The notes: a model not told the origin generated them from the letters alone. A stretch of 64,000 nt of DNA from Candidatus Latescibacterota bacterium (GCA_965116885.1 OZ220741.1:3520001-3584000); one strand, 5' to 3'. Positions 1,402 through 54,441 are shown, counted from the stretch's first letter. Translations and numbers: made by a program.

Positions 1402-1429
1402 TGTCACCTTTCATCCCGACTACAGGATT

Positions 1430-2362
1430 ATGCCCATGTCCGATTACACGTTTAAACTCGCCATGTTCACGACCGAACTGAGACTGCCCTATGACCGGGC
1501 GTTTCCCAAGGCGAAAGAGGTTGGCGCGGATCGCCTCTGGTACGCGCCTTCGGGGGGCGACCTTCCGTTCGAAGCCATGACCGACGCGGATATGGACCGC
1601 ATCGGCGCGTGTGCGGAGCAGCATCAAACGGATATTTTCCTGCTCTGCGGAGGCCGTAAGTTTAAAACCGTGCATCTCAGCGATCTGGATCTGGACGATA
1701 TGGCCGAACACCCCGAATTCCGGGAAGCCCGAGAGGAATTGACCGCCGCCATGAAGATGGCCGCCCGGCTCAAAATTCCGGCAGTGGCCACGTTTACATT
1801 TGCTTGGCCGGGTGAATATACCGCCGGTAAGCCGACCTGGCCCATGCGATGGATGACCCGCGGCGGCGTCATTTCCGATCTGGATATGGACAAACTGGTC
1901 CGGGCGTTTACGCTGCTGGTCGAAGACGCGGACCGCTACGATGTGGATCTGCCGCTGTGCATGATGCCGTGGAATTACACGAATACCACGGAACACATGC
2001 GGCAGGTGATTGAGGCGGTTGGTTCATCTCGCCTGAAAACGGTCTGGGGGCCAGCGGATACCATGAATTGCGGCGAATCGGATACCGCCACCCGCGGATT
2101 TCAGAATGTCCGTCCGTATCTTCATACGCTCCACATAAAAGATCTGAAAGTCATAGACGGTCTGAAATGCGAGTTTGAATACTGTCCCATCGGCGAAGGG
2201 GACGTGGATTTTCCGACGGTACTGCGGAACCTGCGCGATTATCAGATCGATGCGGTGATATCCATTGCCACCCATTTCAAGCCGGAAAGCGGATCGGCGG
2301 AAGAAGCGATGCGTATCAACTTTGCCAATATGAAAGCGTTGATCGGTGGGGTAGGGGACTGA
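1430..2362 (+). CDS. Sugar phosphate isomerase/epimerase (xylose isomerase-like TIM barrel), copy 1
   Basis: Motifs HTLHIKD and PIGEGDVDF. Start re-assigned to ATG 1430 (or 1436) after AGGA, by comparison with copy 2. Confidence 0.85.
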   Translation: MPMSDYTFKLAMFTTELRLPYDRAFPKAKEVGADRLWYAPSGGDLPFEAMTDADMDRIGACAEQHQTDIFLLCGGRKFKTVHLSDLDLDDMAEHPEFREAREELTAAMKMAARLKIPAVATFTFAWPGEYTAGKPTWPMRWMTRGGVISDLDMDKLVRAFTLLVEDADRYDVDLPLCMMPWNYTNTTEHMRQVIEAVGSSRLKTVWGPADTMNCGESDTATRGFQNVRPYLHTLHIKDLKVIDGLKCEFEYCPIGEGDVDFPTVLRNLRDYQIDAVISIATHFKPESGSAEEAMRINFANMKALIGGVGD

Positions 2363-2369
2363 TTCTCGA

Positions 2370-3422
2370 TCATTGTGGTACAGCGCTGCTCATGAACCCT
2401 TCATTTCTCACCAGTACCTGGAGATCCAGGTTTGTCAGGGGGAAATCCACCCGGGCGTTGCCCAACCGCTCCGATTCGTGAAGAGAAAGCACCATTTCCA
2501 GTGCAGCCCGTCCATCTTCTCCAGTGGATATTGTGTCCTGATCGCGGTCGAGGCTTTCTGCAATCTCCTCTACTGACAATGGGATCACACATCGGCCTAC
2601 GTTCGTTGTATTCAGCTTGTGTTCCTCTGGTATTTCGGGAAATTTTTCCTCTTTATTTTTTACGAAGAGCTTGAACTGGCGTGGCCGTGTATTGGCCACC
2701 GTTATCCGTCCCCTGGATCCCAACAATTCAAATAGGTGCTGGGCGCTCGCTCCGGCAGATCCATTTACAATGCATTGTACGCCATTTTGAAACTGAAAGT
2801 ACCCGGCGCCACGGGGATCCAGCGCATCTGGATCCAATAGGTGACCGGTTGCCCACGCGACATCGCCTGCAAAGAAGCGCAGCATGTCAAAATAGTGGGT
2901 TCCGTTGTTGGCAAGTCCGGCGCTGTACTGGAGCGTCATCGCCTGAAGGGAGCCGATTACCTCCTGATCGATTAGTTCCTTAATTTGGCGAAATTGCCAA
3001 TCCCATCGGCGCGTGTGGTTAATGCTCAGCTTTACGTTGTTTTTCCGGCAAGCATCAATCATTTCGTCTGCCTCTCGCAACGTAGTCGCCATCGCCTTCT
3101 CACAGAATATGGCTTTTACGCCTGACTGAGCCGCGGCAACAACGATATCCCGATGCGGTATGGGATAGGTGCAAACACTCACGATATCCAGTTTCTCAGT
3201 ATCCAGCATTTCCCGCCAATCCGTGTACAGACCCGGAACATCCCATTTGCCTCCAAAACTCTGTCGGCGTTCATCGTCCCGATCTGCTGCTGCGACAATA
3301 CGGGTTCGATCACAGTGGTTGTAACAACCCGCATGAGTGTTCGGCGTTCCGCGATGTGTTTCCTGTTCCAGTAGGCTTGAAATCCTGCCACAGCCGATAA
3401 CACCAACGTTATAAACTTGCAT
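2370..3422 (-). CDS. Gfo/Idh/MocA family oxidoreductase, copy 1
   Basis: GVIGCGRI Rossmann motif, CEKAMA, NHTRRW and GTHYFD. Confidence 0.92.
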   Translation of the reverse strand: MQVYNVGVIGCGRISSLLEQETHRGTPNTHAGCYNHCDRTRIVAAADRDDERRQSFGGKWDVPGLYTDWREMLDTEKLDIVSVCTYPIPHRDIVVAAAQSGVKAIFCEKAMATTLREADEMIDACRKNNVKLSINHTRRWDWQFRQIKELIDQEVIGSLQAMTLQYSAGLANNGTHYFDMLRFFAGDVAWATGHLLDPDALDPRGAGYFQFQNGVQCIVNGSAGASAQHLFELLGSRGRITVANTRPRQFKLFVKNKEEKFPEIPEEHKLNTTNVGRCVIPLSVEEIAESLDRDQDTISTGEDGRAALEMVLSLHESERLGNARVDFPLTNLDLQVLVRNEGFMSSAVPQ

Positions 3423-3491
3423 AGAAAGCTCCGGGGAATGTTGTGGGAAGAACTCGTTTTCAAGATCTCAGATCACAATCAAAATATTACA

Positions 3492-5039
3492 CTAATGTAC
3501 TCCTAAGGCAAAGAGTTCTCGACGTGTTTTGGGGTAGTCTTGTTCGATAATTAAATCCAGCAGTCGGTCTCGTAAATGTATCCTGGTCTCCGCAAAGGCA
3601 GGGTCGGCCACGAGATTATGTTGTTCATCCGGATCTTTGAGTAAGTCAAAGAGTTGCTCACCATAACCATCGGGATAGTAGGTATATCGATATTGATCCG
3701 TGCGCACTGTGCGTGCCCATTGACCGAAATGTATTGAGTTAATGTGATTGTAGCTTTCACAATAAGCAGCCGTTCGCCAATCTTCTGGCGCACCGGTAGC
3801 ACACAGCGGCAACAGGGACCGGCCTGGTAGTATCGGAAATTCCCCGGCTTTAATTATGGGGTGATTTGCCTTTTGGGGCATATTCGGCATGTGTTGCCCT
3901 GTGGCATCCAGGATGGTCGGGCAAATATCTTCGTGTTGCACAATGGCATCACATGTTAGCCCAGTCGATAATCCGGGTCCTGAAATGATCAAAGGAACCC
4001 GAATACACGTATCATAGTGTTTTTCTTCCTTGGACTTGAAGCCATGATCAAAGCACATCTCGCCGTGATCTGAGAGGAATATGATGTACGTGTTGTCGAG
4101 ACGGTTGGTGGTTTCGAGGGCTTCCAGAACACGGCCCAATTGTTCATCCAGGTGACACAGATCAGCAAAGTAACAATGCCGAGCATATTCCCAATCGCCC
4201 GTCATAGGCTTACGCCGTGACAGTTCTTTGGGGGCGTGCGGATCGTCCACCCATTCTGCTGGTACTGGTTCTGGTATTTTGTCGGCGTTGACACGAGATA
4301 AATACTCTGCCGGTACATGAAAAGGGCCGTGTGGTTGTACATAGCTGATTTGTGCAAAAAACGGCTGATCAGCATCCATATTGTGGATAAAGTTCAGCGC
4401 GTGCATCGTGATCCAGTTTGTCTGACAGACCTCCTGGGGAAACGGTAAGGTTGAAGCGCCAAACGTATTGCGAGGGTGTTCGTCTGTGGCCCATTGAAAG
4501 TCTTTGCGAATATTCTCAATCCGGGTGCGCAGGGCCCGTCGATCTTGACCGTATGCAGCAAATTCTGGGATCTGAGTTGGCCAGATTGTGGCCAGCACCG
4601 CCTCGTAGTGTTCGGGGTGATTTTCTTCGACCCAGTCCAACCACTCGCCGCCTCTCGAATCCTCTGTGATGTGCGTCTCGTCGAACCCATAAGGCTTGTA
4701 ATCTGGATAGAGGCCGCGATAATGGGGTTGAAAATGGACCTTGCCAAAGGCACCGGTGCGCCAGCCGCCTTTTTGAAGCATCTGCATAAAGGTCGGCAAT
4801 TTGGGATCTAACTGGTACCCATTTTCCAACACACCATGGCCTCGTGTTGTTAAACCTGTCGCAAACGTCGCGCGCGATGCCATACATACAGGGTTGTTGG
4901 CGAAGGCTTGTGTAAAAGTTACACCGCGTGTTTTTAAACCACGGATATTTGGCAGATCACACACGCCTTCCTCAGACTTTTCTATCCATTTGGCCGATAG
5001 TTGGTCAACCATAAAGAGTACAACATTGGGGTTATTCAT
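3492..5039 (-). CDS. Sulfatase (formylglycine-dependent)
   Basis: PNVVLFMVDQ, CMASR (CxAxR), GKVH, SDHGE and LFDLLKDPDE. Confidence 0.93.
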   Translation of the reverse strand: MNNPNVVLFMVDQLSAKWIEKSEEGVCDLPNIRGLKTRGVTFTQAFANNPVCMASRATFATGLTTRGHGVLENGYQLDPKLPTFMQMLQKGGWRTGAFGKVHFQPHYRGLYPDYKPYGFDETHITEDSRGGEWLDWVEENHPEHYEAVLATIWPTQIPEFAAYGQDRRALRTRIENIRKDFQWATDEHPRNTFGASTLPFPQEVCQTNWITMHALNFIHNMDADQPFFAQISYVQPHGPFHVPAEYLSRVNADKIPEPVPAEWVDDPHAPKELSRRKPMTGDWEYARHCYFADLCHLDEQLGRVLEALETTNRLDNTYIIFLSDHGEMCFDHGFKSKEEKHYDTCIRVPLIISGPGLSTGLTCDAIVQHEDICPTILDATGQHMPNMPQKANHPIIKAGEFPILPGRSLLPLCATGAPEDWRTAAYCESYNHINSIHFGQWARTVRTDQYRYTYYPDGYGEQLFDLLKDPDEQHNLVADPAFAETRIHLRDRLLDLIIEQDYPKTRRELFALGVH

Positions 5040-5127
5040 TGATTTTCTCCTGCGAAAATTCCATTCAACGCTGAACCATTACATACCTGACAGGTGTGTC
5101 ATCTATCGGGATTAACGAGGCATTTTT

Positions 5128-6027
5128 TCAATAACTCAGATCACAGTCAAATCGAACGAGATATGGCCGTCCAAGATGATGCGCCATGGATATGCCCCAG
5201 GTCACACCGGGTCCTGCGCCTTCAACAAAGTTATCAGCCCGAAAGGGACCAGGGGCACTCGGGGGAGAGGTATCCGCTATTTTTTGAAAATGGACACCGT
5301 CATTGCTATACTGTAAGGTGTTGCCCTGGGGTCCCACATTAGAGACCAGACATCCGACGCCATTGCCGTGGGGCCAGACGCAGACCTCGTGACCACTGTC
5401 CAACACCGGGTTCTCAGAATGTTTGATATAGGGACCTGTCGGCTCACTGGCAATCGCCAACCCCATCCTGGTTTCATTTGGCTTGCGGTTCATCTGTCGG
5501 CCCTTGTAATACATCCAGTATTTTCCGTCTCGAGCGATCAGGCACGTGTCGTCAACCCGCATGCTGTCAAAAATTTCCGGATTGTCGCTGGGCCGCAACA
5601 CTGGATTGCCTTCAAACCGAACCCACGGTCCCCGAGGTGAATCTGCTACTGCAATACCAATGGCGGTCTTTGTTCCATTCGGACCGCCATTATCATTGTT
5701 GAACGGCTCAGGTACCGCTGTGTAAAACAAATAGTATTGACCGCCTGAGACAAGAATCGTGGGTGTGAATACAGCGTGCTCATCGAATGCACCTTTTGCA
5801 CCTTTGGGAAGCGCTTCTCCTTCCTCAGACCAGGTCACACCGTCGGGGCTTGTAGAATACCAGATTGAAGCGGAGTAGCCATCAAACGATTCTTCGGTGC
5901 GAGAATACCAAACATAGTACGTGCCATCCACCTGAATTACCGGGCTTGGATCTCTCCGCGTAACACCATCCTCGAAAGCCACCGCAGTTGCGTATGTAAA
6001 TCCATCGAAATGAGCAAATTTACTCAT
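5128..6027 (-). CDS. GH117-like five-bladed beta-propeller glycoside hydrolase
   Basis: TRRDPS, HAVFTP, YYKG and SGHEV motifs typical of GH117. No signal peptide. Confidence 0.8.
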   Translation of the reverse strand: MSKFAHFDGFTYATAVAFEDGVTRRDPSPVIQVDGTYYVWYSRTEESFDGYSASIWYSTSPDGVTWSEEGEALPKGAKGAFDEHAVFTPTILVSGGQYYLFYTAVPEPFNNDNGGPNGTKTAIGIAVADSPRGPWVRFEGNPVLRPSDNPEIFDSMRVDDTCLIARDGKYWMYYKGRQMNRKPNETRMGLAIASEPTGPYIKHSENPVLDSGHEVCVWPHGNGVGCLVSNVGPQGNTLQYSNDGVHFQKIADTSPPSAPGPFRADNFVEGAGPGVTWGISMAHHLGRPYLVRFDCDLSY

Positions 6028-6058
6028 ACGTATTCCTTAGCAGCAAGAATTCGGCATC

Positions 6059-6447
6059 TTAATTTCTCACGCCAGTTTATGTCCTATTGTAATCGTAGGG
6101 CCGGTTTCGGAAGAGGTAGTCTATCGGTTCATCTACAAAAATTATGTTCGGGTCCAGGTCGCTTTCTGCAAAGGCGGTTTCACAACCGGTATTGAACCGG
6201 AGAGGGGGAAGGGGGGCGGCTCCTGCTGGACGTTTCCCCAAACGAAGTTATGGGGTGGCGCAGGGGCGTTCATGATCTTCTCTATGTCTTCGGTCATCCG
6301 CTCACAGAGAAGGTCGAGGTGTTCGTGCGCGACCACTGCATTGAGGATGATGTAGCCCTCCGTTCGAATGGCATCGAGGGCCTGTTTCAGGTGCGCGTCG
6401 GTGAGAGATTCGGCTGCGTGCTCTTCCGGTGTGACGGTGATTTCCAC
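6059..6447 (-). pseudogene. PhyH-family dioxygenase pseudogene (internally deleted copy of 9974-10843)
   Basis: Both ends are near-identical to 9974-10843. 481 bp are missing between two GGGGGAAGG copies, causing a frameshift after PPPFP. Confidence 0.95.
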
Positions 6448-6503
6448 GGCTACTCCCTTCCTGCGGTGCTTGCATCGTGCTATTAAAAAGGGAATTATGT
6501 AGC

Positions 6504-6565
6504 AAAGTAGCATAATGCCTTATTTTGTCAAACTATTTGACAGCCTTGAATGCCCTGTCTATCAT
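6504..6565. promoter_or_regulatory. Back-to-back divergent sigma70-type promoters
   Basis: Plus strand: TTGACA (6537-6542), 17 bp, TATCAT (6560-6565). Minus strand: TTGACA (6531-6526), 16 bp, TACTTT with an upstream TG. The two -35 boxes form the palindrome TGTCAAA-CTA-TTTGACA. Confidence 0.7.
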
Positions 6566-6649
6566 GTAAAATAAGCAGGGCATTTTTCATTTTGGAGTTG
6601 CCCCCAAAACGGGTCAAGTCCAGTCACCCTTCATCCCGACTACAGGATT

Positions 6650-7582
6650 ATGCTCATGTCCGATTATACGTTTAAACTTGCCATGTTCACGACCGAACTG
6701 AGACTGCCCTATGACCGGGCATTTCCCAAAGCGAAAGAGATTGGCGCGAACCACCTCTGGTACGCGCCTTCGGGGGGCGATCTTCCGTTCGAAGCCATGA
6801 CCGACGCGGATATGGATCGCATCGGCGCGTGCGCCGAGCAGCATCAAACGAAGATTTTCCTGCTCTGCGGAGGCCGTAAGTTTAAAACCGTGCATCTCAG
6901 CGATCTGGATCTGGACGATATGGCCGAACATCCCGAATTCCAGGAAGCCCGAGAGGAATTGACCGCCGCCATGAAGATGGCCGCCCGGCTCAAAATTCCG
7001 GCAGTGGCCACGTTTACATTTGCTTGGCCGGGTGAATATACCGCCGGTAAGCCGACCTGGCCCATGCGATGGATGACCCGCGGCGGCGTCATTTCCGATC
7101 TGGATATGGACAAACTGGTTCAGGCGTTTACGCTGCTGGCCGAAGACGCGGACCGCTACGATGTGGATCTGCCGCTGTGTATGATGCCGTGGAATTACAC
7201 GAATACCACGGAACACATGCGGCAGGTGATTGAGGCAGTCGGTTCACCTCGCCTGAAAACGGTCTGGGGACCGGCGGATACCATGAACTGCGGTGAATCG
7301 GATACCGCCACCCGCGGATTTCAGAATGTCCGTCCGTATCTTCACACGCTCCACATAAAAGATCTGAAAGTCATTGACGGTCTGAAATGCGAGTTTGAAT
7401 ACTGCCCCATCGGTGAAGGGGATGTGGATTTTCCGACGGTACTGCGGAACCTGCGCGATTATCAGATCGATGCGGTGATATCTATCGCCACCCACTTCAA
7501 GCCGGAAAGCGGATCGGCGGAAGAAGCGATGCGTATCAATTTTGCCAATATGAAGGCGTTGATCGGTGGGGTAGGGGACTGA
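6650..7582 (+). CDS. Sugar phosphate isomerase/epimerase, copy 2
   Basis: About 9 aa differences from copy 1. Intact and downstream of the promoter at 6537-6565. Confidence 0.87.
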   Translation: MLMSDYTFKLAMFTTELRLPYDRAFPKAKEIGANHLWYAPSGGDLPFEAMTDADMDRIGACAEQHQTKIFLLCGGRKFKTVHLSDLDLDDMAEHPEFQEAREELTAAMKMAARLKIPAVATFTFAWPGEYTAGKPTWPMRWMTRGGVISDLDMDKLVQAFTLLAEDADRYDVDLPLCMMPWNYTNTTEHMRQVIEAVGSPRLKTVWGPADTMNCGESDTATRGFQNVRPYLHTLHIKDLKVIDGLKCEFEYCPIGEGDVDFPTVLRNLRDYQIDAVISIATHFKPESGSAEEAMRINFANMKALIGGVGD

Positions 7583-7589
7583 TTTTCGA

Positions 7590-8642
7590 TTATTGTGGTA
7601 CAGCGCTGCTCATGAACCCTTCGTTTCTCACCAGTACCTGGAGATCCAGATTTGTCATAGGGAAATCCACCCGGGCGTTGCCCAACCGCTCCGATTCGTG
7701 AAGAGAAAGCACCATTTCCAGCGCCGCTCGTCCATCTTCTCCAGTGGATATTGTGTCCTGATCGCGGTCGAGGCTTTCTACAATCTCCTCTACTGACAAC
7801 GGGATCACACATCGGCCTACGTTCGTTGTATTCAGCTTGTGTTCCTCTGGTATTTCGGGAAATTTTTCCTCTTTATTTTTGACGAAGAGCTTGAACTGAC
7901 GTGGCCGTGTATTGACCACCGTTATTCGTCCCCTGGATCCCAACAATTCAAAGAGGTGCTGGGCGCTCGCTCCGGTAGATCCATTTACAATGCATTGTAC
8001 GCCATTTTGAAAATGAAAGTACCCGGCGCCACGGGGATCCAGCGCATCCGGATCCAATAGGTGACCGGTTGCCCACGCGACATCGCCTGCAAAGAAGCGC
8101 AACATGTCAAAATAGTGGGTTCCGTTGTTGGCAAGCCCGGCACTGTACTGGAGCGTCATCGCCTGAAGGGAGCCGATGACCTCCTGATCGATTAGCGCCT
8201 TAATTTGGCGAAATTGCCAATCCCATCGGCGCGTGTGGTTAATGCTCAGCTTTACGTTGTTTTTCCGGCAAGCATCAATCATTTCGTCTGCCTCGCGCAA
8301 CGTAGTCGCCATCGCCTTCTCACAGAATATGGCTTTTACGCCTGACTGAGCCGCGGCAACAACGATATCCCGATGCGGAATGGGATAGGTGCAAACACTC
8401 ACGATATCCAGTTTCTCAGTATCCAGCATTTCCCGCCAATCCGTGTACAGACCCGGAACATCCCATTTGCCTCCAAAACTCTGTCGGCGTTCATCGTCCC
8501 GATCTGCTGCTGCGACAATACGGGTTCGGTCACAGTGATTGTAACAACCCGCATGAGTGTTCGGCGTTCCGCGATGTGTTTCCTGCTCCAGTAAACTTGA
8601 AATCCTGCCACAGCCGATAACACCAACGTTGTAAACTTGCAT
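7590..8642 (-). CDS. Gfo/Idh/MocA family oxidoreductase, copy 2
   Basis: About 6 aa differences from copy 1. Start set at MQVYNV (8642) to match copy 1. Confidence 0.92.
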   Translation of the reverse strand: MQVYNVGVIGCGRISSLLEQETHRGTPNTHAGCYNHCDRTRIVAAADRDDERRQSFGGKWDVPGLYTDWREMLDTEKLDIVSVCTYPIPHRDIVVAAAQSGVKAIFCEKAMATTLREADEMIDACRKNNVKLSINHTRRWDWQFRQIKALIDQEVIGSLQAMTLQYSAGLANNGTHYFDMLRFFAGDVAWATGHLLDPDALDPRGAGYFHFQNGVQCIVNGSTGASAQHLFELLGSRGRITVVNTRPRQFKLFVKNKEEKFPEIPEEHKLNTTNVGRCVIPLSVEEIVESLDRDQDTISTGEDGRAALEMVLSLHESERLGNARVDFPMTNLDLQVLVRNEGFMSSAVPQ

Positions 8643-8771
8643 AGAAAAACTCCGGGGAATGTTGTGGGAAGAACTCGTTTTCAAGATCTCAGATCACAAT
8701 CCAAACAAAGATTTCTACCTTCATCATTGTACCTTTTTGAAGTTTTTGTATTTTCAAAAACTTTAGTGCGC

Positions 8772-9908
8772 TCACCCTTGGTGAGTCCCAGCCTCCGCTA
8801 CCTTCCCGCGGTCTTCCTGCCGCTCCAGCGGCAGTTCTTGCATAAATGTCCACTGACGGTCCCCCAGCTTTTGAAGCTGCGATTCGTCGAGTTCCATCCC
8901 CAGACCCGGACCTTTAGGCACGAGAAGGTAGCCATTTTCGTACTGGACCCGGTGTTTGACAACGTCGTCAATGTAGAGTTGCGCGCCAGCCGCATCGCCA
9001 GGGTAATCGAGGTTGGATACCGATGCGCCCAGATGCGCCTGCGCGGAGGTCCCAATAGAAAGTTCCTGAGTTGTGCCAATCAAGGTGGAGATTCCGGTGG
9101 CCTGTGCTATGGCGAAGATCTGGCGCGATCGTTTGATGCCCTGGTGGCAGGTCGCAATATTGAAGATGTCGACAGCCTGTCCTTCCGCGAAAGCAATGGC
9201 CTGGGTCTCGTCGTTGACATGCTCACTGACCGGGAACCGGATGCGCTCACGCACCTTTGCTTTGCCCGGGATGTCGGGTGCGGGACTTTCAACCAGGATC
9301 GGCTCGACCCACTGCAGACGCTCAACGGCGGCTACGCACGACTTCCAATCAAGTCGGCGGCTGAAGTCCAGTGATTTAACTTTGAATCGATCTCCATAAC
9401 GATCGCGACACTCATGTAAGATCTGATTGTCGATTTCGAGGTTTCCACCCACGTAAAATCGGAACAGGTCGAATCCCAGCTCGAGCATTCGACCGACTCG
9501 CTCGACGTTGGGTGCGACGTCCGCCTCTTCGAATTGTCGAAAGATGGGGTAGCAGATTTTGTAGCGATCTCGGTAAGCACCTCCATAGAGGTCGTGAATT
9601 GGAATGCCCAAGCTCTTGGCCCGAAGGTCGTGAATCGCAATGTCCACACCTGCGCCAATCTGTCCCTTATATCCGTCGACGATCGGATCGATGGCGGTTG
9701 GATCGGATGGATCGATTCCGATCAACGATTTCCGAAGTATATACTCGAGATGGTTGATGTCGGGTATGTTTCGGGTACTGAGGTCGGACATTTCGCCCGC
9801 ACCGACTACACCATCGTCTGAGATGATACGGATGATAATGTGAGGGCTAAGCGTACCGTTCTCTCGTCTTGTTCCGACTGCAAATAGATCGAGCTCTTTA
9901 ATGGTCAA
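8772..9908 (-). CDS. Enolase-superfamily acid-sugar dehydratase, galactarate dehydratase II-like
   Basis: GEMSD, CYPIFR, FRFYVG (RxY instead of KxK), SLDFS, ESPAP, SEHV and GTTQELS, as I recall for Oceanobacillus galactarate dehydratase II. TTG start after AAGGAG. Confidence 0.8.
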   Translation of the reverse strand: MTIKELDLFAVGTRRENGTLSPHIIIRIISDDGVVGAGEMSDLSTRNIPDINHLEYILRKSLIGIDPSDPTAIDPIVDGYKGQIGAGVDIAIHDLRAKSLGIPIHDLYGGAYRDRYKICYPIFRQFEEADVAPNVERVGRMLELGFDLFRFYVGGNLEIDNQILHECRDRYGDRFKVKSLDFSRRLDWKSCVAAVERLQWVEPILVESPAPDIPGKAKVRERIRFPVSEHVNDETQAIAFAEGQAVDIFNIATCHQGIKRSRQIFAIAQATGISTLIGTTQELSIGTSAQAHLGASVSNLDYPGDAAGAQLYIDDVVKHRVQYENGYLLVPKGPGLGMELDESQLQKLGDRQWTFMQELPLERQEDRGKVAEAGTHQG

Positions 9909-9973
9909 AGCAGACTCCTTTCATCGATCGTCTCAGGAACACCAATACGAATAGAGCGCCCCTTGTCGGCATC

Positions 9974-10843
9974 TTAATTTTTCACGCCAGTTTCTGTCTC
10001 ATTGTAATCGTAGGGCCGGTTTCGGAAGAGGTAGTCTATCGGTTCATCTACAAAAATTATGTTCGGGTCCAGGTCGCTTTCCGCAAAGGCGGTTTCACAA
10101 CCGGTATTGAATCGGAGAGGGGGAAGGCGACGCATCCAGTGGCATGAGTAGATCGCTGCGATCATGAACCGCGGTTGGTCGGAGGGATTTGGCATTCCCC
10201 GGTGCCAGAGCCGGGAATCGCGGATCAGAATGCTTCCCTTTTTTGTGTTCCCCCGAACTGGCGGTGCTACTTTTCGGCGTGCTTCCTGCAGGTGTTCTTC
10301 TACCTTGATATCATCTCCAACTACCTTTTGCGTTTCCAGATGGGAGCCAGGCCAGAGTTCGATACTTCCGTTGGCTTCGGTCACTTCGTCCAGGGCAATA
10401 TTGACAATGACTTTGGACGGCGGGTGCGCGACATCCAGGTTCGGCCAGAGCTGTCCCGAGTCAACATGTACCGGCTGGAGTTCGCTGCCCGGCAAGTTGG
10501 TGTTGCCGGTGTAGCGATTGTTGAAGATCCCTTCGCCGAGCAGGGCTTTCGAGACCTGGACTACATAGGGGTTCGCCATAACGTCGCGAAAGACGTAAGG
10601 GGGGAAGGGGGGCGGGTCTTGCTGGACGTTTCCCCAGACGAAGTTATGGGGCGGCGCAGGGGCGTTCATGATTTTCTCTATGTCTTCGGTCATCCGCTCA
10701 CAGAGAAGATCGAGGTGTTCGTGCGCGACCACTGCATTGAGGATGATGTAGCCCTCCGTTCGAATGGCATCGAGGGCCTGTTTCAGGTGCGCGTCGGTGA
10801 GAGATTCGGCTGCGTGTTCTTCCGGTGTGACGGTGATTTCCAC
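9974..10843 (-). CDS. Phytanoyl-CoA dioxygenase (PhyH) family protein
   Basis: HxD (VHVD), NGSIELWPGSH, WHRG and PRFM. Confidence 0.9.
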   Translation of the reverse strand: MEITVTPEEHAAESLTDAHLKQALDAIRTEGYIILNAVVAHEHLDLLCERMTEDIEKIMNAPAPPHNFVWGNVQQDPPPFPPYVFRDVMANPYVVQVSKALLGEGIFNNRYTGNTNLPGSELQPVHVDSGQLWPNLDVAHPPSKVIVNIALDEVTEANGSIELWPGSHLETQKVVGDDIKVEEHLQEARRKVAPPVRGNTKKGSILIRDSRLWHRGMPNPSDQPRFMIAAIYSCHWMRRLPPLRFNTGCETAFAESDLDPNIIFVDEPIDYLFRNRPYDYNETETGVKN

Positions 10844-10952
10844 GGCTACTTATCTCCAGATCATTAAACGATTAAGACTGTATTTAGGGGTTTTGTGTGA
10901 TGTTCATTTTTCAAGACATTTGGTTTAGGTAGAAAGTTTTTATATTTTGAAG

Positions 10953-11011
10953 AGGCGTTGCCGCTCTTTCCCGCCTGGTTGGGCGTAGAAAATGTAGAGC
11001 GCATTGTCCAC
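10953..11011 (-). pseudogene. Fragment of the carbon-nitrogen hydrolase gene 20733-21617
   Basis: Matches 20918-20975 with 2 substitutions and a 1-bp insertion. Confidence 0.9.
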
Positions 11012-11065
11012 GGTCAATCTATTAAGGAGACAAACTTTCCACCAGATTCCCAGGAAGATACGCCA

Positions 11066-12016
11066 ATGAAAACGGATTTGTCACGTATTAAGCACTCGCT
11101 CATGTATGAGGTATTTCAATCAACTACCATGCTGTTATTTATGTTGTCAGGCATTTCTACCATGCGCCAAAAACATCAATTAGCTGCAGGAGTTGCTACA
11201 TCCATTCCTCTGCCGGGGCTTCCTGAAATCTGCTTCTCCCCGTGCATTATTAACGCCCCGGATGACTACCTGTATGGTCCAGCCGGAGCCGCGGCCCAGC
11301 TTGCTTACATGGGATGGGTCGCGGAGGTGTACGCGCTCTGGGAATGTCGCTTCCGTAAAGAACTAAAGGAATCATTCGGTTCAGATGCCAGCATAATCCT
11401 GCCGGAGTTCGACACATTCGGGGATCTGCGTCGAATTAGGAATGATTTCCTACACAACAACAGAGTTGCTAGCAGAGAGCACACAGGAAAATGTAAAGTA
11501 CTTAAATGGTTTGAGGCAGGTGACAAGATAGTGTTCAGTCTAAATCAGGTATTCGATTTTCTCCATCAAGCGGGCTTCCTGTTACTAGCACATGACCACG
11601 AAAGGCGCGTGCCAGCGAGTGCATATCCTTCTTTCAACGACCACGGATATTCATATGGGCAAACCGTACATCACGACAGGGACAAACTGCTAAATTGGAA
11701 GCCGGAGCCTAAAATTATTTCAGTTCGCAACCATCAGGACAACCAGGATTCGCCTCGCTTCAAGGGCGTAACAGTTGTCTTCAACAATGGCCTGTTCGCA
11801 CCTATTCCATTTGGCCCACTCGATAGCGCAGAGCATCAGGCACGTCTTGGCAAAGCCAAAATAACAGCAGATGGCAATATACAGTTCAATGATGGGACTG
11901 TGCAACATGCTCGGTCCATCTACCGCGATGTGGTCAAAACTTGGTGCGAACCGATAAGCAAAGACGAAGGACCTAGTAGCCCAGTGACTGGGCCGTGGAT
12001 GAAAATTCGTAAATAA
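11066..12016 (+). CDS. Hypothetical protein
   Basis: Long ORF. The track start (10958) lies inside the nitrilase remnant, so ATG 11066 is preferred. Contains DLRRIRNDFLHN (R-x4-H). Confidence 0.65.
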   Translation: MKTDLSRIKHSLMYEVFQSTTMLLFMLSGISTMRQKHQLAAGVATSIPLPGLPEICFSPCIINAPDDYLYGPAGAAAQLAYMGWVAEVYALWECRFRKELKESFGSDASIILPEFDTFGDLRRIRNDFLHNNRVASREHTGKCKVLKWFEAGDKIVFSLNQVFDFLHQAGFLLLAHDHERRVPASAYPSFNDHGYSYGQTVHHDRDKLLNWKPEPKIISVRNHQDNQDSPRFKGVTVVFNNGLFAPIPFGPLDSAEHQARLGKAKITADGNIQFNDGTVQHARSIYRDVVKTWCEPISKDEGPSSPVTGPWMKIRK

Positions 12017-14884: not shown

Positions 14885-14903
14885 ATGTATTCCTTTATCA
14901 AGT

Positions 14904-15749: not shown

Positions 15750-15775
15750 TGTGTACTCCTTTCAGATATGCCCGA

Positions 15776-44242: not shown

Positions 44243-44341
44243 CTCTATCTCCTGGTCTGAGACCATCGCAGAGAAGACGGTTAGCTTTAGCAGGTTTTTC
44301 AACAACCTGCATAGGGAACGGTTAAACGTTGACAAATAACC

Positions 44342-48693: not shown

Positions 48694-48857
48694 TCACTCC
48701 TTATCATAACCTGTTTTTCGATCTCCATCGACTTCCTTAGACCAAGTCGCGTACAGTTCCCAGGCATTAATGCTTTTCATCTCTTATCCTGTCTCTGTGG
48801 ATGTGTAAAAGGGCTGATCACGATATTCGGGTAGGAACCGCTGTTGTTATCACCCAT
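48694..48857 (-). pseudogene. Composite spacer of three sulfatase remnants
   Basis: 48727-48760 matches the C-terminus of 52925-54310 (27/34 nt). 48770-48786 matches the 52911-52927 stop/start junction (16/17). 48816-48857 encodes a sulfatase-like start, MGDNNSGSYPNIVI. Confidence 0.75.
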
Positions 48858-48859: not shown

Positions 48860-50167
48860 TCACGATCCTTTCGCCCGTTGAAACCAGTCAATGAGTTGGC
48901 TTTTAAGATCGTTATAAATCTCAGGATATTGACTGGCCAAATCATTGGCTTCGCCAATATCCTGATCGAGCTTGTACAATTCAAATTGCAATTCTTCAAT
49001 AGCCGGAATAGCCTCGGCAAATTGCCCGCGATGATTAGGGCCTGTACCAACCAGTTTCCAATCGTCTTTTACCGCTCCCATTTTCCCAAACAAATCCCAA
49101 AACACATACCGCCCTGGCAAATCTTCTTGCCCCTGTGATCTCAAATGCGCAAGCAAACTCACTCCATGAACTGGATGCTGTCCATTCATTTTGGGAATCT
49201 CAATGCCAGCCGCATCCAGCACAGTGGCAAACAAATCAAAATGCACAGCACCTGCATCAGATACCATCCCTTTGGGAATAACACCCGGCCACTGCATCAC
49301 CGCAGGCACGCGGATTCCACCTTCATATGTCATTCCTTTTTGCCCGCGTAAAGGGCCATTATTGCCCGGAAATTTATCAATCATTGCACCATTATCGCTC
49401 AAGTAGATGACAAGTGTGTTATCTACGATAGCCAACTCATGCAATGTCGCCATGATTTTACCCACACCATCATCCATATGATCCAGCACCGCACAATAGT
49501 CGCGCTTGGGGAACTCAATACCGCGATCTTCATACTTTTTTAACCACTCGGCTTTGCCCGATGTTTTGGGTGCCTGTTCTCGCCACAAGGGACCATGCAC
49601 AGCATTGTAAGGCACATAACAAAAAAACGGCTTATCACGATGTTTCCGAATAAAGTCAATCGCATAACCAGTAAACACATCCGTCAAATGATCTTCATGC
49701 ACCATGGGCTGGTCATTGTGCAAAAGGCGACTACCATCAAAAGGCCAATAGGGGTGTGCACCACCCAAAAATCCGACAAATTCTTCAAAACCGCGTTCAT
49801 TGGGCACATTGGGTGCATCATATCCCAAATGCCACTTGCCAAACATGCCAGTTTTATATCCTGCTTCCTTCAAAAACTCGGGCAAAAGTTTTACATCATC
49901 ATGAATGCGCCTTGGCAACGTATCTGTTTTCTGCCCCGGCAGTGATGGGCCACGCCACATGCCGCATTCCAAAGAATACTGCCCAGAAAAAAGAGATGCA
50001 CGCGTTGGCGCACAAAGTGGATTGACCCTCAACTGTGTAAAACGCACCCCATTTTTTGCAATCGCATCCATCGTTGGTGTATCGACCTCTGTATCCCAAT
50101 AACAACCCGCATCTCCATACCCCTGATCGTCTGTAACAATGATGAGAAAATTTGGTTTTGTGGCCAT
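48860..50167 (-). CDS. Sulfatase (chimeric 5' end)
   Basis: TDDQGYGD, CAPTR, GKWHLG and SDNG. The first 19 codons are nearly identical in DNA to those of 52925-54310. Confidence 0.93.
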   Translation of the reverse strand: MATKPNFLIIVTDDQGYGDAGCYWDTEVDTPTMDAIAKNGVRFTQLRVNPLCAPTRASLFSGQYSLECGMWRGPSLPGQKTDTLPRRIHDDVKLLPEFLKEAGYKTGMFGKWHLGYDAPNVPNERGFEEFVGFLGGAHPYWPFDGSRLLHNDQPMVHEDHLTDVFTGYAIDFIRKHRDKPFFCYVPYNAVHGPLWREQAPKTSGKAEWLKKYEDRGIEFPKRDYCAVLDHMDDGVGKIMATLHELAIVDNTLVIYLSDNGAMIDKFPGNNGPLRGQKGMTYEGGIRVPAVMQWPGVIPKGMVSDAGAVHFDLFATVLDAAGIEIPKMNGQHPVHGVSLLAHLRSQGQEDLPGRYVFWDLFGKMGAVKDDWKLVGTGPNHRGQFAEAIPAIEELQFELYKLDQDIGEANDLASQYPEIYNDLKSQLIDWFQRAKGS

Positions 50168-50172
50168 AATGA

Positions 50173-51015
50173 TCATTCCTTGAGTGCGGCAGCATCCTCA
50201 GCGATCCACTCTTTCCATCTCTCTTCGTCGGGTTGCATAAATCCACTGTTGGCTCGCCGAAATACATTTGCATCTTCGCCCAGGAGGCGCAGTAGGCGAC
50301 GATTGCCAGTCTCTCGTGCTCGCGCTTTGACTGCTTGAGAAATTGGGCCTGAATAATTGGCTCTGTGTTTAAGCCAGGAGTGATTCATCGTTAAAAAGAA
50401 AAGGTATCGGTATTCCTTTGAGTAATTGGCCGTTCCCGAGTGTACTATCGCATTGTGAAATACGGCGATATCTCCAGATTTGGGATAAAGGATGACTTCG
50501 TCAGGATGGGGTTGTTTTCTTTCTTCTTGTGTTAAAGATATTGCCTTCATGTGAGAACCTGGAATAATTCGCAGGGGGCCAATTTCATCATCGAGATCCT
50601 GTAAATAGCTCAGGGCATTGAAGAGTAAGGGCCTTTGGTAGATGCCTTCTTGAGGAAACTCGGCGAACATGTCCCGATGAAAACCCAGTACTGGATTTGT
50701 GTTTGGGTCCTGTGGCGCCGTGCGCCGATATGTGATGGATTCAAGCTGGACATGAGGGCCGACGATCATTTCAGCAAAGTCCAGGAGGCGCTTATTTGAC
50801 AAGGCAGAGAGAATGAGATCGGGTTTGTGTTCTAACACATCGACAAAGACCTGGGGTCGGCTGCCATCGGGATTGGGGAGGCGATCACCGATTTCTTCAA
50901 ATGAATCTCGCATGGCTTTGACCCAGACATCGTCCAGCATCTTTGGGAAAAGTGTAAATCCAACTGTTTTGAATTCTTTTAGGTGTTCTTCGAGGGATTT
51001 GGGCTCTTTTTGCAT
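50173..51015 (-). CDS. PhyH-family dioxygenase
   Basis: FHRD, GPLRIIPGSH and VHSG. RBS AGGAGG. Confidence 0.9.
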   Translation of the reverse strand: MQKEPKSLEEHLKEFKTVGFTLFPKMLDDVWVKAMRDSFEEIGDRLPNPDGSRPQVFVDVLEHKPDLILSALSNKRLLDFAEMIVGPHVQLESITYRRTAPQDPNTNPVLGFHRDMFAEFPQEGIYQRPLLFNALSYLQDLDDEIGPLRIIPGSHMKAISLTQEERKQPHPDEVILYPKSGDIAVFHNAIVHSGTANYSKEYRYLFFLTMNHSWLKHRANYSGPISQAVKARARETGNRRLLRLLGEDANVFRRANSGFMQPDEERWKEWIAEDAAALKE

Positions 51016-51058
51016 TTCAGCCTCCTGGTGTTTCAGTTTTCTTCATTTTGGGCAGAAT

Positions 51059-51360
51059 TCAGGATTGGAAAATCGTCCCGGGCCACGGGTAAGCGTTGGA
51101 TCCAGCCTCATCATCGATGGGGCCTTCCGGCAGTGTGGCTTGCCAATCCAGGACCTGCTCTGACATCTGCTTGACCAGGGTCTCTTCAAATTTGGCGTGA
51201 TTGACGAGTTCCATCGGGTCTGCAGGAATGTTGTATAGTTCGACACGGCTTCTGTCCGGTTCGAACGTGGATATCCTCAGGGCCGTTGTCAGCTGAGAAG
51301 ATGACAATCGTATTGTCGGAAAGGCCCAGTTGATCCAGCCGATCCCTGAGCCGTCCAATA
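51059..51360 (-). pseudogene. Sulfatase pseudogene (two fragments joined out of frame)
   Basis: IGRLRDRLDQLGLSDNTIVIFSADNGPED is joined near 51264 to the C-terminal VELYNIPADPME...YPWPG in another frame. The N-terminal half is absent. Confidence 0.88.
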
Positions 51361-51375
51361 AGGATAAAACACAAA

Positions 51376-51402
51376 GTAGGCGGTAAGCCTTTACGCCCCT
51401 AC
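51376..51402. repeat. Degenerate GTAG-type REP-like palindrome
   Basis: GTAGGcggtaagcctttacgccCCTAC, single copy in the window. Confidence 0.35.
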
Positions 51403-51445
51403 GGTGCCAGGGCTGTCAGGTAGGAGTGTCCCCATCAATGGCGTA

Positions 51446-52921
51446 TCAATAACGAGGGTCGCCAGCTTCAATTGTTCGTTCCAGCAGCCTGCTGCGCATG
51501 GCTTCTTCCCGATCTCGATAATCCGGGTTTCCCGCCAGATTCACCAGTTCGCCCGGGTCGTTCTGCAAGTCGTAAAGTTCAGAACGATCATTCACATAAT
51601 GTGCGTATTTCCACTTCTCGTTTCGAACCATGCGACCCCGAGAAAGGAAGAACGTTCCCGACTCAACCAGCGGCAATTCAGGTACGGGCTCCGTCCGACT
51701 TATGCCGGCTTTCAGCGCGTCCAGTTCTGCTTCTGGTCCTCCCTCTGGCAATGGCTGACGGCTGCCAACTTCCGCATAGGTGCAGTCTCTTTCTGGAGCC
51801 ATACCCGACATCATATCTGTCACACTTCTACCCTGAACACCCGGCGGGATCGAGATTCCGTTACTCTGGAGTAATGTAGGCATCAAGTCGATTTGCTCAA
51901 TTTGCAGTGCGTTTGTTGCACCATCCCGTGCATGTTCCAAACCCCTTACGATCAATGGGACCTGGACAATGCAGTCGTAGAATGCAGCTGTTTTCCGAAT
52001 GAGTCCGTGTTCGCCCAGGTACTCACCGTGGTCTCCTGTGGCAACAATGATGGTGTCGTCCCAACGACCAAGCGCTTTTAGTCCATCAAAGAATTTGCCC
52101 AGGCATTCATCCAGGTGCCTGAGCATGCCGTAGTAGTACGTCATTGTCTGCCGCAGCTGCTCGTCATCCATGAGATGCAGCCATCCGCCGTGATAATAGA
52201 CTTGCTGAACGAATGGTTTTGAGTCCAATTCATCCTGAGGTCTATGTGGGAGAGGCATGTCCTCTGGTTTGTACATCGTGGCAAAAGGTTCGGGAGCCCG
52301 ATAGGGCGGATGAACATCGGAAAAGCTCAACCACACAAACGAAGGCTCGCCCCCCTTCCTTTCGAGATAATCGAGGGCCTGATTCACGTTGGCTCTTGCT
52401 GGCGTTTCAGCAGGATCGAAAGGGTAGGTTCCGCCATACCAGATTGGGTTTGGGTGATCTCCCCAACGGAAACGTCTTGTCTGTGATTCGAACACAGATG
52501 GGTCGATGGGTATTGCAGGCCCAGGAAATGGCTTCCCATAGGCTTCTCGCTGCTTTTGCCGAAGTGGTGACTCTTCAATACACGCTTCAAATCCTGCTGT
52601 TTTGGCATCTGGAAAACAGTGGTTTTTCCCAAATAGGCCACAGCCGACACCAGCATCTTTCAAGAGCCCTGGCAGATGAACCCTTTCCTTTTCTTGCATC
52701 AACAGCGTGTTGTCTCTGGAACCTGTAACGCTGGGATAACGACCCGTGAAAAATGCGACCCGTGATGCGACGCAGAGCGGAGAAGGTACGGTGCAGTTTT
52801 CAAACCTGATGGCTTCGCTGGCAAAGCGATCCAGATGAGGTGTCGCTCCGACGGGATTGCCATAGCATCCTAATGCGCGAGCGGCAAGATGCTCAATGGT
52901 GATTACGACGATGTTTTTCAT
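51446..52921 (-). CDS. Sulfatase with atypical N-terminal metal motif
   Basis: CVASR, GKNH and TGDHGE. ITIEHL replaces the usual DD/DQ. Confidence 0.9.
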   Translation of the reverse strand: MKNIVVITIEHLAARALGCYGNPVGATPHLDRFASEAIRFENCTVPSPLCVASRVAFFTGRYPSVTGSRDNTLLMQEKERVHLPGLLKDAGVGCGLFGKNHCFPDAKTAGFEACIEESPLRQKQREAYGKPFPGPAIPIDPSVFESQTRRFRWGDHPNPIWYGGTYPFDPAETPARANVNQALDYLERKGGEPSFVWLSFSDVHPPYRAPEPFATMYKPEDMPLPHRPQDELDSKPFVQQVYYHGGWLHLMDDEQLRQTMTYYYGMLRHLDECLGKFFDGLKALGRWDDTIIVATGDHGEYLGEHGLIRKTAAFYDCIVQVPLIVRGLEHARDGATNALQIEQIDLMPTLLQSNGISIPPGVQGRSVTDMMSGMAPERDCTYAEVGSRQPLPEGGPEAELDALKAGISRTEPVPELPLVESGTFFLSRGRMVRNEKWKYAHYVNDRSELYDLQNDPGELVNLAGNPDYRDREEAMRSRLLERTIEAGDPRY

Positions 52922-52924
52922 CTC

Positions 52925-54310
52925 TTAGCTCCTATCGACTTCCTCAGACCAGGCTCTGTACAATTCCTGCAGGTGCTCAACGACCCTGGGATGCTGGTCA
53001 ATCAGATCTTGACTCTCGGAGGGATCTTCCTTCAGGTTAAACAGGCAGGTCTTCTGGAGAAGCTCTGTGCGTTCAACGATCCCATCGCAGGGCTCTCGAC
53101 CTCTCCTGCCACCTTTATGCAACAGTTTCCAATCACCAGAGCGCACGGCATAACTGTCGCCCCAGCGCCAGAAGAGGTCTCGCTGGTCTGCGATTTTTGT
53201 GACATCTTTTGGGATGGCTTGACCATCCAAACCTTCTGGCAGATTGATGCCTGCCGCCTGCAGACAGGTCGGAAGAATATCGAGCGTTGAGATTGTCCTG
53301 TCACAGATCGTTCCAGATGCCGACTCATTTGGACAGGCGAGAATGAACGGCACGCGAATCCCGCCTTCCCAGAGCGTAAACTTGCTCCCGGCAAGCGGCA
53401 GGTTGCAGGCACCGGTGTTCGGTGCGCCTCCGTTGTCTGAAAACATGATCACGATGGTGTTGTCGGCAAGCGATAGCTGATCCAACGTGTCCAGGAGGCG
53501 ACCGATATTGTCGTCGAGGCAGTTGAGGTTCGCCAGGTAGTATCTGCGAAACTCATCTGCATTGATCTCGCCGAGGGTGACATACCTTTTGAACCAGTCT
53601 TCATAACTGCCCATGGTCTCCGGATCGTAGTTTGGAATCTCCCTTACGCCGTGCTTGTCGAGGTATCGCCTGGGCACCTGATGAATCAGGTGATGCACGG
53701 AGTTGTAGGAGAGCGTTACAAAGAAAGGTTCTTCCTGATGGCTCTCGAGAAAATCGATTGTCGCATCGGTGAAGATCTCCGTCAGATAACCTTCTCCAAA
53801 TTCTTTGTAACCCCGATTGTGCATGAGTGGGCCGACAACCGCGCTGTGCCCTTTTGGATCGGGCGTGCGATCTTCGATATCTCTGGCGAGGAGGAAATAG
53901 TCGTGGCCGTGTGCCGAGAAGCCGAGAAACTCGTCGTAGCCGTGGTTCAGCGGGTATTCGTGAGCTTCGTGATCGTGAAAGCCCAGGCCGTAATCGTTCT
54001 TGCCGAAACGCGCTGTGGTATAGCCGTTAGCCTTCATGATTTCGGCGATGTTCTTTTCTGTTTCAGGATGTCCGCATAAAAAGGAGGATTTCGGATCCCA
54101 GCGCACCTGGTGCCTCCCCGTATTCCATCCAGCACGCGAAGGGCTGCACACCGGGGCTGTGACGTAGGCCTGTGAAAAGAGAACGCCGCGCTCAGCGAGC
54201 CGATCCATATTCGGCGTCTGCACATCTGGCGCATGATGACTGAATGCAGTCAGATCTCCGTAGCCCTGATCGTCTGTAACAATGATGAGAAAATTTGGTT
54301 TTGTGCCCAT
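52925..54310 (-). CDS. Sulfatase
   Basis: TDDQGYGD, CSPSR and SDNGG. GKND replaces GKWH. Confidence 0.92.
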   Translation of the reverse strand: MGTKPNFLIIVTDDQGYGDLTAFSHHAPDVQTPNMDRLAERGVLFSQAYVTAPVCSPSRAGWNTGRHQVRWDPKSSFLCGHPETEKNIAEIMKANGYTTARFGKNDYGLGFHDHEAHEYPLNHGYDEFLGFSAHGHDYFLLARDIEDRTPDPKGHSAVVGPLMHNRGYKEFGEGYLTEIFTDATIDFLESHQEEPFFVTLSYNSVHHLIHQVPRRYLDKHGVREIPNYDPETMGSYEDWFKRYVTLGEINADEFRRYYLANLNCLDDNIGRLLDTLDQLSLADNTIVIMFSDNGGAPNTGACNLPLAGSKFTLWEGGIRVPFILACPNESASGTICDRTISTLDILPTCLQAAGINLPEGLDGQAIPKDVTKIADQRDLFWRWGDSYAVRSGDWKLLHKGGRRGREPCDGIVERTELLQKTCLFNLKEDPSESQDLIDQHPRVVEHLQELYRAWSEEVDRS

Positions 54311-54441
54311 AATGATCTCCCCGGTCTTCCAGGTGTATTCTTCATTCCAATTCCTTGTCTTGTCGTCCTGTCAATACCCAGTTTATCGTGGCCATGGTGA
54401 TGAGTTGCACCTGACCTTTGCCATCCACAATGTGGAAGAGC

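Follow-up and report, generated by a model that had tools for sequence, protein, structure and literature searches.

How does a densely packed string of catabolic genes come to carry, in its spacers, pieces of genes that stand intact elsewhere in the same string? The question is raised by a 64-kb stretch (GCA_965116885.1, OZ220741.1:3520001-3584000) of the single-contig, 5.56-Mb genome (51% G+C, completeness 98%) of a Candidatus Latescibacterota bacterium, here called the window; positions are counted from its first letter unless given as genome positions. A preliminary description, made from the sequence alone, had seen in it a gene-accretion array of a new kind. We consider it probable that the locus is instead a fluid, sulfatase-rich and sugar-degrading catabolic island of a sponge-associated bacterium, remodelled by known and unspecialised processes, and not a new system. 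Multi-gene units would be duplicated locally, in tandem or as segments, and the redundant copies would then be lost by differential deletion, while selection would spare the starts, stops and ribosome-binding sites of neighbouring genes, leaving breaks in spacers or just inside the lost gene. Unequal recombination between paralogues, insertion-sequence (IS) activity and whole-allele homologous exchange among lineages that are about 93-97% identical would add to this. The high rate of such ordinary processes would explain why spacers hold stubs of neighbouring genes.

The evidence comes from self-BLASTN of the window (12 non-self matches), a repeat finder and tblastn, and from comparison with 20 congeneric genomes, many of them single contigs; twelve 21-kb loci (L011-L022) were mapped onto the window. 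The left half holds two tandem units, [A - Sulf1 - GH43 - psiPhyH] and [A' - MR_MLE1 - PhyH1], with the following parts.

1403-3484: block A, with an AP_endonuc_2 gene (1430-2362, plus strand), a GFO/IDH/MocA gene (2370-3422, minus strand) and short upstream regions (Pfam, self-BLASTN)
3457-3484, minus strand: GH43-like tail relic, the last codons and stop of a GH43-like gene
3485-5127, minus strand: Sulf1 segment, with a sulfatase gene (3492-5039), between the GH43-like gene and GFO_a (Pfam)
5128-6027, minus strand: GH43-like glycoside hydrolase gene (PF04616, E 6.6e-18), previously labelled GH117-like
6051-6454, minus strand: psiPhyH, a pseudogene in which the 3' and 5' ends of PhyH1 are joined (self-BLASTN, tblastn)
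6455-6592: divergent promoter region, native upstream of PhyH1 in the relative G007
6593-6623: collapsed insertion sequence of the IS3 family, reduced to 12 nt from one outer end and 19 nt from the other with the interior gone, at the exact left edge of block A'
6623-8705: block A', second copy of the two genes (6650-7582, plus strand; 7590-8642, minus strand; Pfam, self-BLASTN)
8678-8705, minus strand: GH43-like tail relic in the MR_MLE1-type unit
8772-9908, minus strand: MR_MLE1, an enolase-superfamily gene and the cargo of the second unit (Pfam); a slot state common to L012, L013 and L022
9974-10843, minus strand: PhyH1, an intact Fe(II)/2-oxoglutarate dioxygenase-family gene, parent of psiPhyH (Pfam, self-BLASTN)

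Block A' (6623-8705) matches block A (1403-3484) over 2,083 nt at 96.4% identity, and the genes are intact in both copies. The 75 differences are evenly spread, and the derived changes divide 41 vs 33, so that both copies have changed. The preliminary description had held that blocks were duplicated, which A/A' bears out, and redundant copies do decay into scars, as psiPhyH shows. The pseudogene consists of two pieces of PhyH1 (6051-6212 vs 9966-10127, 96.3%; 6204-6454 vs 10600-10850, 97.2%), which between them cover residues 1-81 (98.8%, the 5' end) and 240-289 (94%, the 3' end) at the protein level; about 472 nt have been lost, with a 9-nt microhomology at the joint. The region upstream of it, 6455-6592, is 97% identical to G007 over 138 nt, or 97.9% over 389 nt when the PhyH 5' end is included. 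A candidate promoter motif, TTGACA-17-TATCAT, was spotted here by eye, facing AP_endo2_b.

Where the two units join lies the collapsed insertion sequence, which agrees with IS3-family ends at 19/19 and 11/12 positions. It is flanked by CATTT and GTCACC and hence has no target duplication, as expected if the IS mediated the join. Its parent is an element of about 1.26 kb with OrfA/OrfB-type frames, identified by reading the translation rather than by Pfam. An IS remnant of this kind, lacking a target-site duplication and indicative of IS-mediated rearrangement, is established at this one junction, and no other multi-copy relics were found in the window spacers. The 19-mer of the IS end has seven copies elsewhere in the genome. 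Full copies of the element lie at genome positions 1142067-1143323 and 4168237-4169499, together with one ending at 1870458, and there are several solo ends, for instance near 4651758, 2555898 and 4667785. Loose contig ends at 6604 in three sequencing runs were considered as an alternative junction and rejected, as the contigs came from another IS-end copy near 4651758. One contig of a sponge metagenome (run X1) joins 6341 to 7596, that is, the PhyH interior to the GFO 3' end, skipping 1,254 nt; it represents a structural variant of another population.

The slot between PhyH1 and GFO shows the same kind of remodelling among the relatives. It is empty in three of the 12 loci (L014, L015 and L020), holds the GH43-like gene in three (L017, L019 and L021) and MR_MLE1 in another three (L012, L013 and L022), and contains Sulf1 with the first ~95 nt of the GH43-like gene in one (L011), the only one of the 12 with Sulf1 at this position. 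L016 and L018 (2/12) carry a GFO start stub, which comprises the GFO upstream region and roughly 60 nt of the GFO 5' end; a BNR-type gene follows, accompanied or not by a sulfatase, and after this cargo comes an intact GFO. The empty alleles carry deletion scars: the PhyH1 frame of L014 enters about 35 nt of the GH43-like 3' end, and L015 and L020 show a different, larger deletion. The MR_MLE1-type, GH43-type and empty alleles are shared by lineages that do not group by block-A identity.

The tail relics belong to this slot. Positions 3457-3483 and 8678-8701 match the true 3' end of the GH43-like gene at 5125-5151 (24/27), and the same string forms the last codons of that gene in L017, L019 and L021, where the gene abuts GFO. 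In the window, 3457-3484 and 5125-5151 constitute a 17-nt direct repeat flanking the Sulf1 segment. This 17-mer was considered as a general recombination site and rejected, since with up to two mismatches it has four genomic occurrences, all in the window. The fourth copy (58573-58589) occupies the same strand of the 292-nt spacer upstream of Sulf10 and may represent a further GH43-like relic.

A second set of pieces derives from a nitrilase-family gene.

10851-11012, minus strand: patchwork of a nitrilase tail-like 12-mer (10851-10862), a foreign intergenic piece (10887-10943) and a nitrilase piece (10944-11012)
16624-16650, minus strand: second nitrilase piece, in the spacer between PhyH2 and SDR
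20722-21617, minus strand: Nit1, an intact nitrilase-family gene (20733-21617; Pfam), the source-like copy of the pieces

The piece at 10953-11011 matches 20918-20975 (59 nt, 94.9%, E 8e-14 in self-BLASTN), the alignment extending to 10944-11012, and 16624-16650 agrees with 21000-21026 at 26/27 positions. The two pieces are collinear, with 5.6 kb of other genes between them; L011 and L012 align without a break across the spacer that holds the second. The foreign piece in the patchwork resembles an intergenic region elsewhere in G011 (86% to G011:C30). The 12-mers at 10851-10862 and 20722-20733, listed before as a nitrilase piece and a PhyH start, are weak: they lie within a 21/24 match of which we estimate that about 0.8 would be expected by chance. 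They are equivalently placed (stop codon, 6 nt, GTG), and directly 3' of the Nit1 stop a 6-nt spacer is followed by 5 nt matching the PhyH1 start. Another candidate, the 14-mer at 16621-16634 with 17 copies elsewhere, was rejected as a repeat element because all copies are leucine-rich-repeat coding units; the match stems from a segmental duplication of leucine-rich-repeat genes with a 72-nt period (genome 4400302-4403819 vs 4413399-4416474). A copy with 82% identity to the neighbouring PhyH2 gene (16657-17364) is found at genome 3318207-3318917, some 200 kb upstream of the window.

In the right half the remnants are those of sulfatase genes, and the comparison is with the sister genome G017.

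48727-48786, minus strand: 18-nt stub (48769-48786) of the Sulf8-stop/Sulf7-start joint, together with a piece like the Sulf8 3' end (48727-48746)
50111-50174, minus strand: Sulf6 5' end, 95% identical over 64 nt to the Sulf8 5' end at 54254-54317
51048-51407, minus strand: psiSulfX, a decayed sulfatase of which three collinear fragments remain; the corresponding region of G017 extends over about 2.6 kb
52910-52927, minus strand: resident Sulf8-stop/Sulf7-start joint, parent of the 18-nt stub

The window reads Sulf8-Sulf7-psiSulfX-PhyH5-Sulf6-[18-mer stub]-beta-helix gene, and G017 reads Sulf8-[167-nt SulfX 3' duplicate]-PhyH5-Sulf6-[18-mer + first 135 nt of Sulf7]-SulfX-beta-helix gene; blocks are thus reciprocally retained in the two sister genomes. 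The stub at 48769-48786 matches 52910-52927 at 13/13 positions in one alignment and 16/18 as read in another, and is the 18-nt repeat found on both sides of the moved [PhyH5-Sulf6] block in G017. The adjacent piece at 48727-48746 agrees with 52934-52953 at 18/20 positions but is not collinear with the stub, and the homology of the beta-helix gene to G017 stops at 48718 (blastx residues 18-861). Within psiSulfX, 51282-51359 is recognised as a sulfatase relic by tblastn, a scar that had not been listed before, and the SulfX region of G017 gives a near-full-length sulfatase-like match. A single ancestral tandem duplication from the 18-mer, with complementary deletions, would fit both gene orders and all of the stubs.

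The stretch at 50111-50174, formerly counted among the spacer pieces, lies inside the 5' end of a sulfatase coding sequence (CDS) and not in a spacer. Outside the shared 64 nt, Sulf6 and Sulf8 are about 68% identical. In G020, G004 and G014, Sulf6 is joined to the region upstream of Sulf8, the two overlapping by about 64 nt, and because this overlap matches the shared stretch, the 5' end marks a recombination joint between paralogues near the conserved sulfatase N-terminal motif.

Counted within the window, such matches are few. In a control of 37 spacers of at least 20 nt, compared with the window CDSs against 100 dinucleotide shuffles each, two spacers score clearly above all shuffles (6028-6649, 428 bits; 16604-16651, 46 bits and 0/100 shuffles) and a third is borderline (23941-23979, with a 14-mer scoring 28.2 bits vs a shuffle maximum of 26.3). 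The remaining 34 fall within chance in these shuffles, and the GH43-tail spacer (3423-3491) is matched by 8/100 of them; 10953-11011 stood outside the test, within the nominal open reading frame (ORF) 10958-12016. Since 34/37 spacers are at chance, the within-window statistics cannot carry the claim that spacers repeatedly contain gene pieces, which had been offered together with a shuffled-control check; real stubs are nonetheless found by self-BLASTN and in relatives, the two 12-mers excepted. Comparison with 12-20 congeneric genomes validates the short stubs, and by it the GH43-tail and Sulf7-start stubs are real at the sequence level. The preliminary observation is on the whole accurate. 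Stub lengths are 12, 17, 18, 19, 27, 68, ~80, ~95, 135-141, 167, ~360 and 404 nt, and both gene ends are represented; this raggedness argues that there is no fixed recombination site.

The relatives place the island at one chromosomal position. A query of A'-MR_MLE1-PhyH1 matches 19/20 congeners, with one block A copy each among the matches listed; the right-hand part of the island is present in 16/20, and in 10 closed relatives block A and AKR lie 22-38 kb apart. ASST, GFO and PhyH1 are constant anchors in the 12 loci, but the gene string differs in almost every species. For instance, Sulf3-PhyH2 is the order in the window, L011-L013 and L020, and PhyH2-Sulf3 that in L016, L019 and L022. Start stubs sit in the spacers of this swap, and the relatives' spacers hold a 27-nt sulfatase-like start and also that of an MR_MLE-like gene which L019 retains intact. 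The proposal that scars mark slots variable among relatives is therefore upheld, and gene order differs across them. The island also differs from two control regions, which are far more collinear: one breaks at spacers into mostly collinear blocks of up to ~6.7 kb (checked in G017, G006 and G020), and the other aligns in 9-15-kb blocks with one local swap. The window is set apart by changes of order and by presence or absence of genes, not by gene-sized alignment blocks. A control swap is seen in L031 (genome 2500001-2520000), where query blocks 14590-16017 and 16032-16805 are reversed in order in G017. Local partial duplications of this style occur throughout the genome: more than half of the low-copy repeat pairs (111/215) have their members <30 kb apart and count as local, there are several collinear patchy sets, and the 64-kb bin of the window has 5 local pairs, the per-bin maximum being 6. 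The notion of a distinct new system does not survive this comparison.

Base composition is uneven, as had been reported. GC3 (G+C at third codon positions) of the window genes is 0.41-0.80, with a standard deviation of 0.107 vs 0.072 genome-wide, and the bin ranks fourth of 87 in spread. Of the enzyme genes, MR_MLE3 (43088-44335) is the poorest in G+C (0.43; GC3 0.41); G017 shows a clean absence of it, with Sulf5 and AKR 7 nt apart.

The statement that the locus has no recombinase needs correction, given the IS3-family footprint at 6593-6623 and the following element.

35220-36546, plus strand: TnpB-only IS200/IS605-type element, with the TnpB gene at 35345-36484 (Pfam)

It splits the RND efflux operon between MFP (34002-35201) and OEP (36513-37895), and has six other genomic matches over most of its length (76-95% identity); L014 and L015 lack it at this position. 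Only one Y1 transposase gene is present in the genome, distant from the window at 5284124. IS copies also occur at the island in relatives, with a TnpB copy beside ASST in L018 and an IS4-type transposase in L021; no other recombinase was found among cargo ORFs of relatives (24 ORFs from 10 of 12 loci). That there is neither an integrase nor an attC-type site agrees with our scans. Integrons are characterised by IntI, attC and fixed cassette boundaries. An IntI-type recombinase was found neither by the PF00589 scan nor by Pfam scans of the window ORFs; tyrosine recombinases (PF00589) are lacking in the window, the nearest of four genome matches being at 4394558, more than 800 kb off. With attC taken as an imperfect palindrome of ~55-140 nt per cassette, 25/47 spacers are too short (<55 nt), and nine inverted-repeat pairs link distant coding regions rather than spacers. 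The stubs, 12 to ~400 nt long, come from inside genes, unlike pieces cut at a fixed cassette boundary. Scans of the window for Rfam families, tRNAs and repeat arrays found none of relevance.

Several findings weigh against explaining the island by ordinary remodelling of resident genes. Block A is hardly closer to A' (96.4%) than to L011 of the nearest species (96.1%), and because the 3.6% divergence of the two copies approximates that between block A and the nearest species, the duplication is either old or was imported from a near relative. The ORF at 10958-12016 has no DNA match in the 20 congeners and is thus cargo without a congeneric counterpart; because of this, of the uneven GC3 and of the absence of MR_MLE3 from G017, some gene gain from outside the genome is likely. 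The 17-18-nt direct repeats around inserted blocks also fit insertion at short homology, a two-block order swap occurs outside the island in a control region, and no read or contig was seen to span a whole duplicated unit, the public contigs being short. The duplications, the stubs, the variable slots, the microhomology deletion, the collapsed IS at a junction and the reciprocal retention of blocks are seen directly, whereas the order of events and the shares of gain and loss are inferred. A stronger form of the explanation can be offered only tentatively, and we regard it as more doubtful than not: in it, these islands gain, lose and reorder single enzyme genes chiefly through tandem duplication with reciprocal loss, which, combined with allele exchange among ~95% identical lineages, would give the population a cassette-like library without cassette machinery. 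In the preliminary description, duplicated or re-acquired copies served as landing pads that incoming genes overwrote by homology-facilitated illegitimate recombination (HFIR), giving an integron-like library. We consider this unlikely. The stub-cargo-GFO pattern of L016 and L018 is what one homologous anchor and one illegitimate join would produce, and the collinearity of nitrilase pieces 5.6 kb apart, the ORF unique to this genome, the GC3 span of 0.41-0.80 and a ComEC homologue in the genome point the same way; yet tandem duplication with deletion produces every such pattern equally, L016/L018 included. Illegitimate or short-homology joins were rightly suspected, in view of the 9-nt microhomology and the 17-18-nt flanking repeats, but overwriting by incoming single genes is not what the two best-resolved cases suggest, as both fit duplication with reciprocal deletion, the clearest (window vs G017) being one of reciprocal loss. 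Moreover, the main duplication junction carries an IS footprint, the phenomenon is genome-wide, and neither donor nor uptake was directly observed. The check for competence and end-joining genes gave a ComEC homologue but no match for Ku (PF02735) in the 98%-complete genome, a further point against overwriting, although end joining is not disproved by it.

Two further explanations can be weighed against remodelling by known processes. The duplication and scars could be unreal, two strain alleles having been concatenated in a metagenome-assembled genome (MAG). The congeners are MAGs, which suggests the same of this genome; the 3.6% divergence of the units resembles that between different strains; no aligned contig spans a whole unit, and run X1 has its variant joint at 6341|7596. 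We nevertheless find an artefact very improbable: the junction, with its microhomology pseudogene, promoter piece and IS footprint, is a unique sequence beyond what an assembler would invent, contigs of run X19 are identical to the window over 3451-6080 and 8672-9993, and similar stubs occur in independently assembled relatives. In each of three runs, from three studies, the two units have depths close to each other (16.1/14.1, 83/90 and 7.3/5.4) and to those of the flanks, a weak argument given that depth does not measure copy number. A site-specific cassette system whose recombinase and site have escaped recognition would account for co-directional, tightly packed genes, for single genes varying between species, for neighbours swapping as Sulf3 and PhyH2 do, and for the direct repeats of 17-18 nt that flank two inserted blocks. 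It is largely refuted and hardly credible, since the breakpoints are ragged and lie at varying depths inside genes, the 17-mer and 18-mer are mutually unrelated sequences, the former occurring four times in the genome (up to two mismatches) and only in the window, and more than half of the spacers (25/47) are shorter than 55 nt. The same conclusion follows from the scans of the window for Rfam families, tRNAs and repeat arrays, from the location of all four tyrosine-recombinase matches outside it, the nearest more than 800 kb away, and from the 24 cargo ORFs of relatives, with their one IS4-type transposase.

The gene content of the island, from Pfam scans of 50 window ORFs, is catabolic. It includes 12 sulfatases, eight PhyH-family dioxygenases, three enolase-superfamily (MR_MLE) proteins, three xylose-isomerase-like TIM barrels, two GFO/IDH/MocA oxidoreductases and two nitrilase-family proteins, besides GH43/GH32-like hydrolases, an aldo-keto reductase, an SDR, a zinc-type dehydrogenase and the RND efflux operon split by the TnpB gene. 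In most of the sulfatases the Pfam domain begins at residues 1-10 of the longest ORF (for instance 3492-5039, 12328-13755, 48860-50176 and 57138-58487), which leaves no room for a signal peptide and suggests that these enzymes are cytoplasmic. It has already been published that Poribacteria have high PhyH counts and that sulfatases are enriched in Poribacteria and PAUC34f (PMC3909097, PMC7081726). Public records label the congeners as MAGs of Candidatus Latescibacterota and the next relatives as Candidatus Poribacteria; the runs containing window sequence are mostly sponge, coral-reef or marine metagenomes. Two further regions may be added. The nucleotidyltransferase gene region at 58789-59383 has a 77-81% copy at genome 4215377-4215705, and the closest relative has, at the island's left edge (L011:38-3322), a PD-(D/E)XK nuclease-family gene and a gene for an ATPase with two AAA domains, both missing in the window, which may be a defence-type pair.

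The locus offers a base-pair view of how near-species of an uncultured sponge symbiont come to differ in their sulfatase and PhyH repertoire, with intermediates visible, and is useful for understanding symbiont pangenome dynamics. It is also relevant to annotation, as stubs yield false ORF starts and chimeric N- and C-termini.

Among known systems, the island resembles an integron in that single genes of unrelated function follow one another in the same direction, with a content that varies from relative to relative, but it has no IntI, attC or fixed cassette boundary. Flexible genomic islands are described as exchanged by homologous recombination (Lopez-Perez et al. 2014, PMC4033161). As in that account, relatives have different genes of a similar functional theme at the same chromosomal position and share alleles; different from what is described there are the single-gene grain in an operon-like array, the catabolic functions instead of surface structures, and the prominence of duplication and stubs. 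Tandem duplication-random loss (TDRL) is a model of gene-order change in animal mitochondrial genomes (PMC5122201), in which, as here, a multi-gene unit is duplicated in tandem, differing copies are lost, the order changes and non-coding remnants are left. Tandem unit copies or remnants are found in A/A' with psiPhyH, in the 167-nt and 18-nt duplicates of G017 and in the GFO stub of L016/L018, and complementary loss giving a new order in the [PhyH5-Sulf6] and Sulf7/SulfX blocks of the window vs G017. Unlike the mitochondrial model as presented in PMC5122201, the present case concerns a bacterial chromosome and units of 5-7 kb, and adds IS activity and recombination between lineages.

The assumption that such an architecture had not been described as a system does not hold. 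Arrays of orphan modules at Rhs, contact-dependent inhibition (CDI) and type VI secretion system (T6SS) effector-immunity loci have been proposed to grow by displacement via HFIR (Kirchberger et al. 2017, PMC5361080). Those arrays, according to that proposal, are likewise integrase-free, with displaced gene ends as remnants and a conserved anchor combined with an illegitimate join. They have a constant 5' gene, 3' toxin and immunity modules and conflict-driven selection, whereas the island has no constant anchor gene of this type and has stubs of both gene ends. In the symbiont Buchnera, spacers contain decaying pseudogenes that are removed by deletion (PMC3164680), and are therefore partly remnants of former genes, as in the window; the process described there is one of genome reduction with no duplication or gain, in contrast to the loss of mostly redundant duplicates in a 5.56-Mb genome with expanding families. 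Set beside these systems, the island is no new genetic system; it shows known processes, in good resolution, in a symbiont that has received little study.

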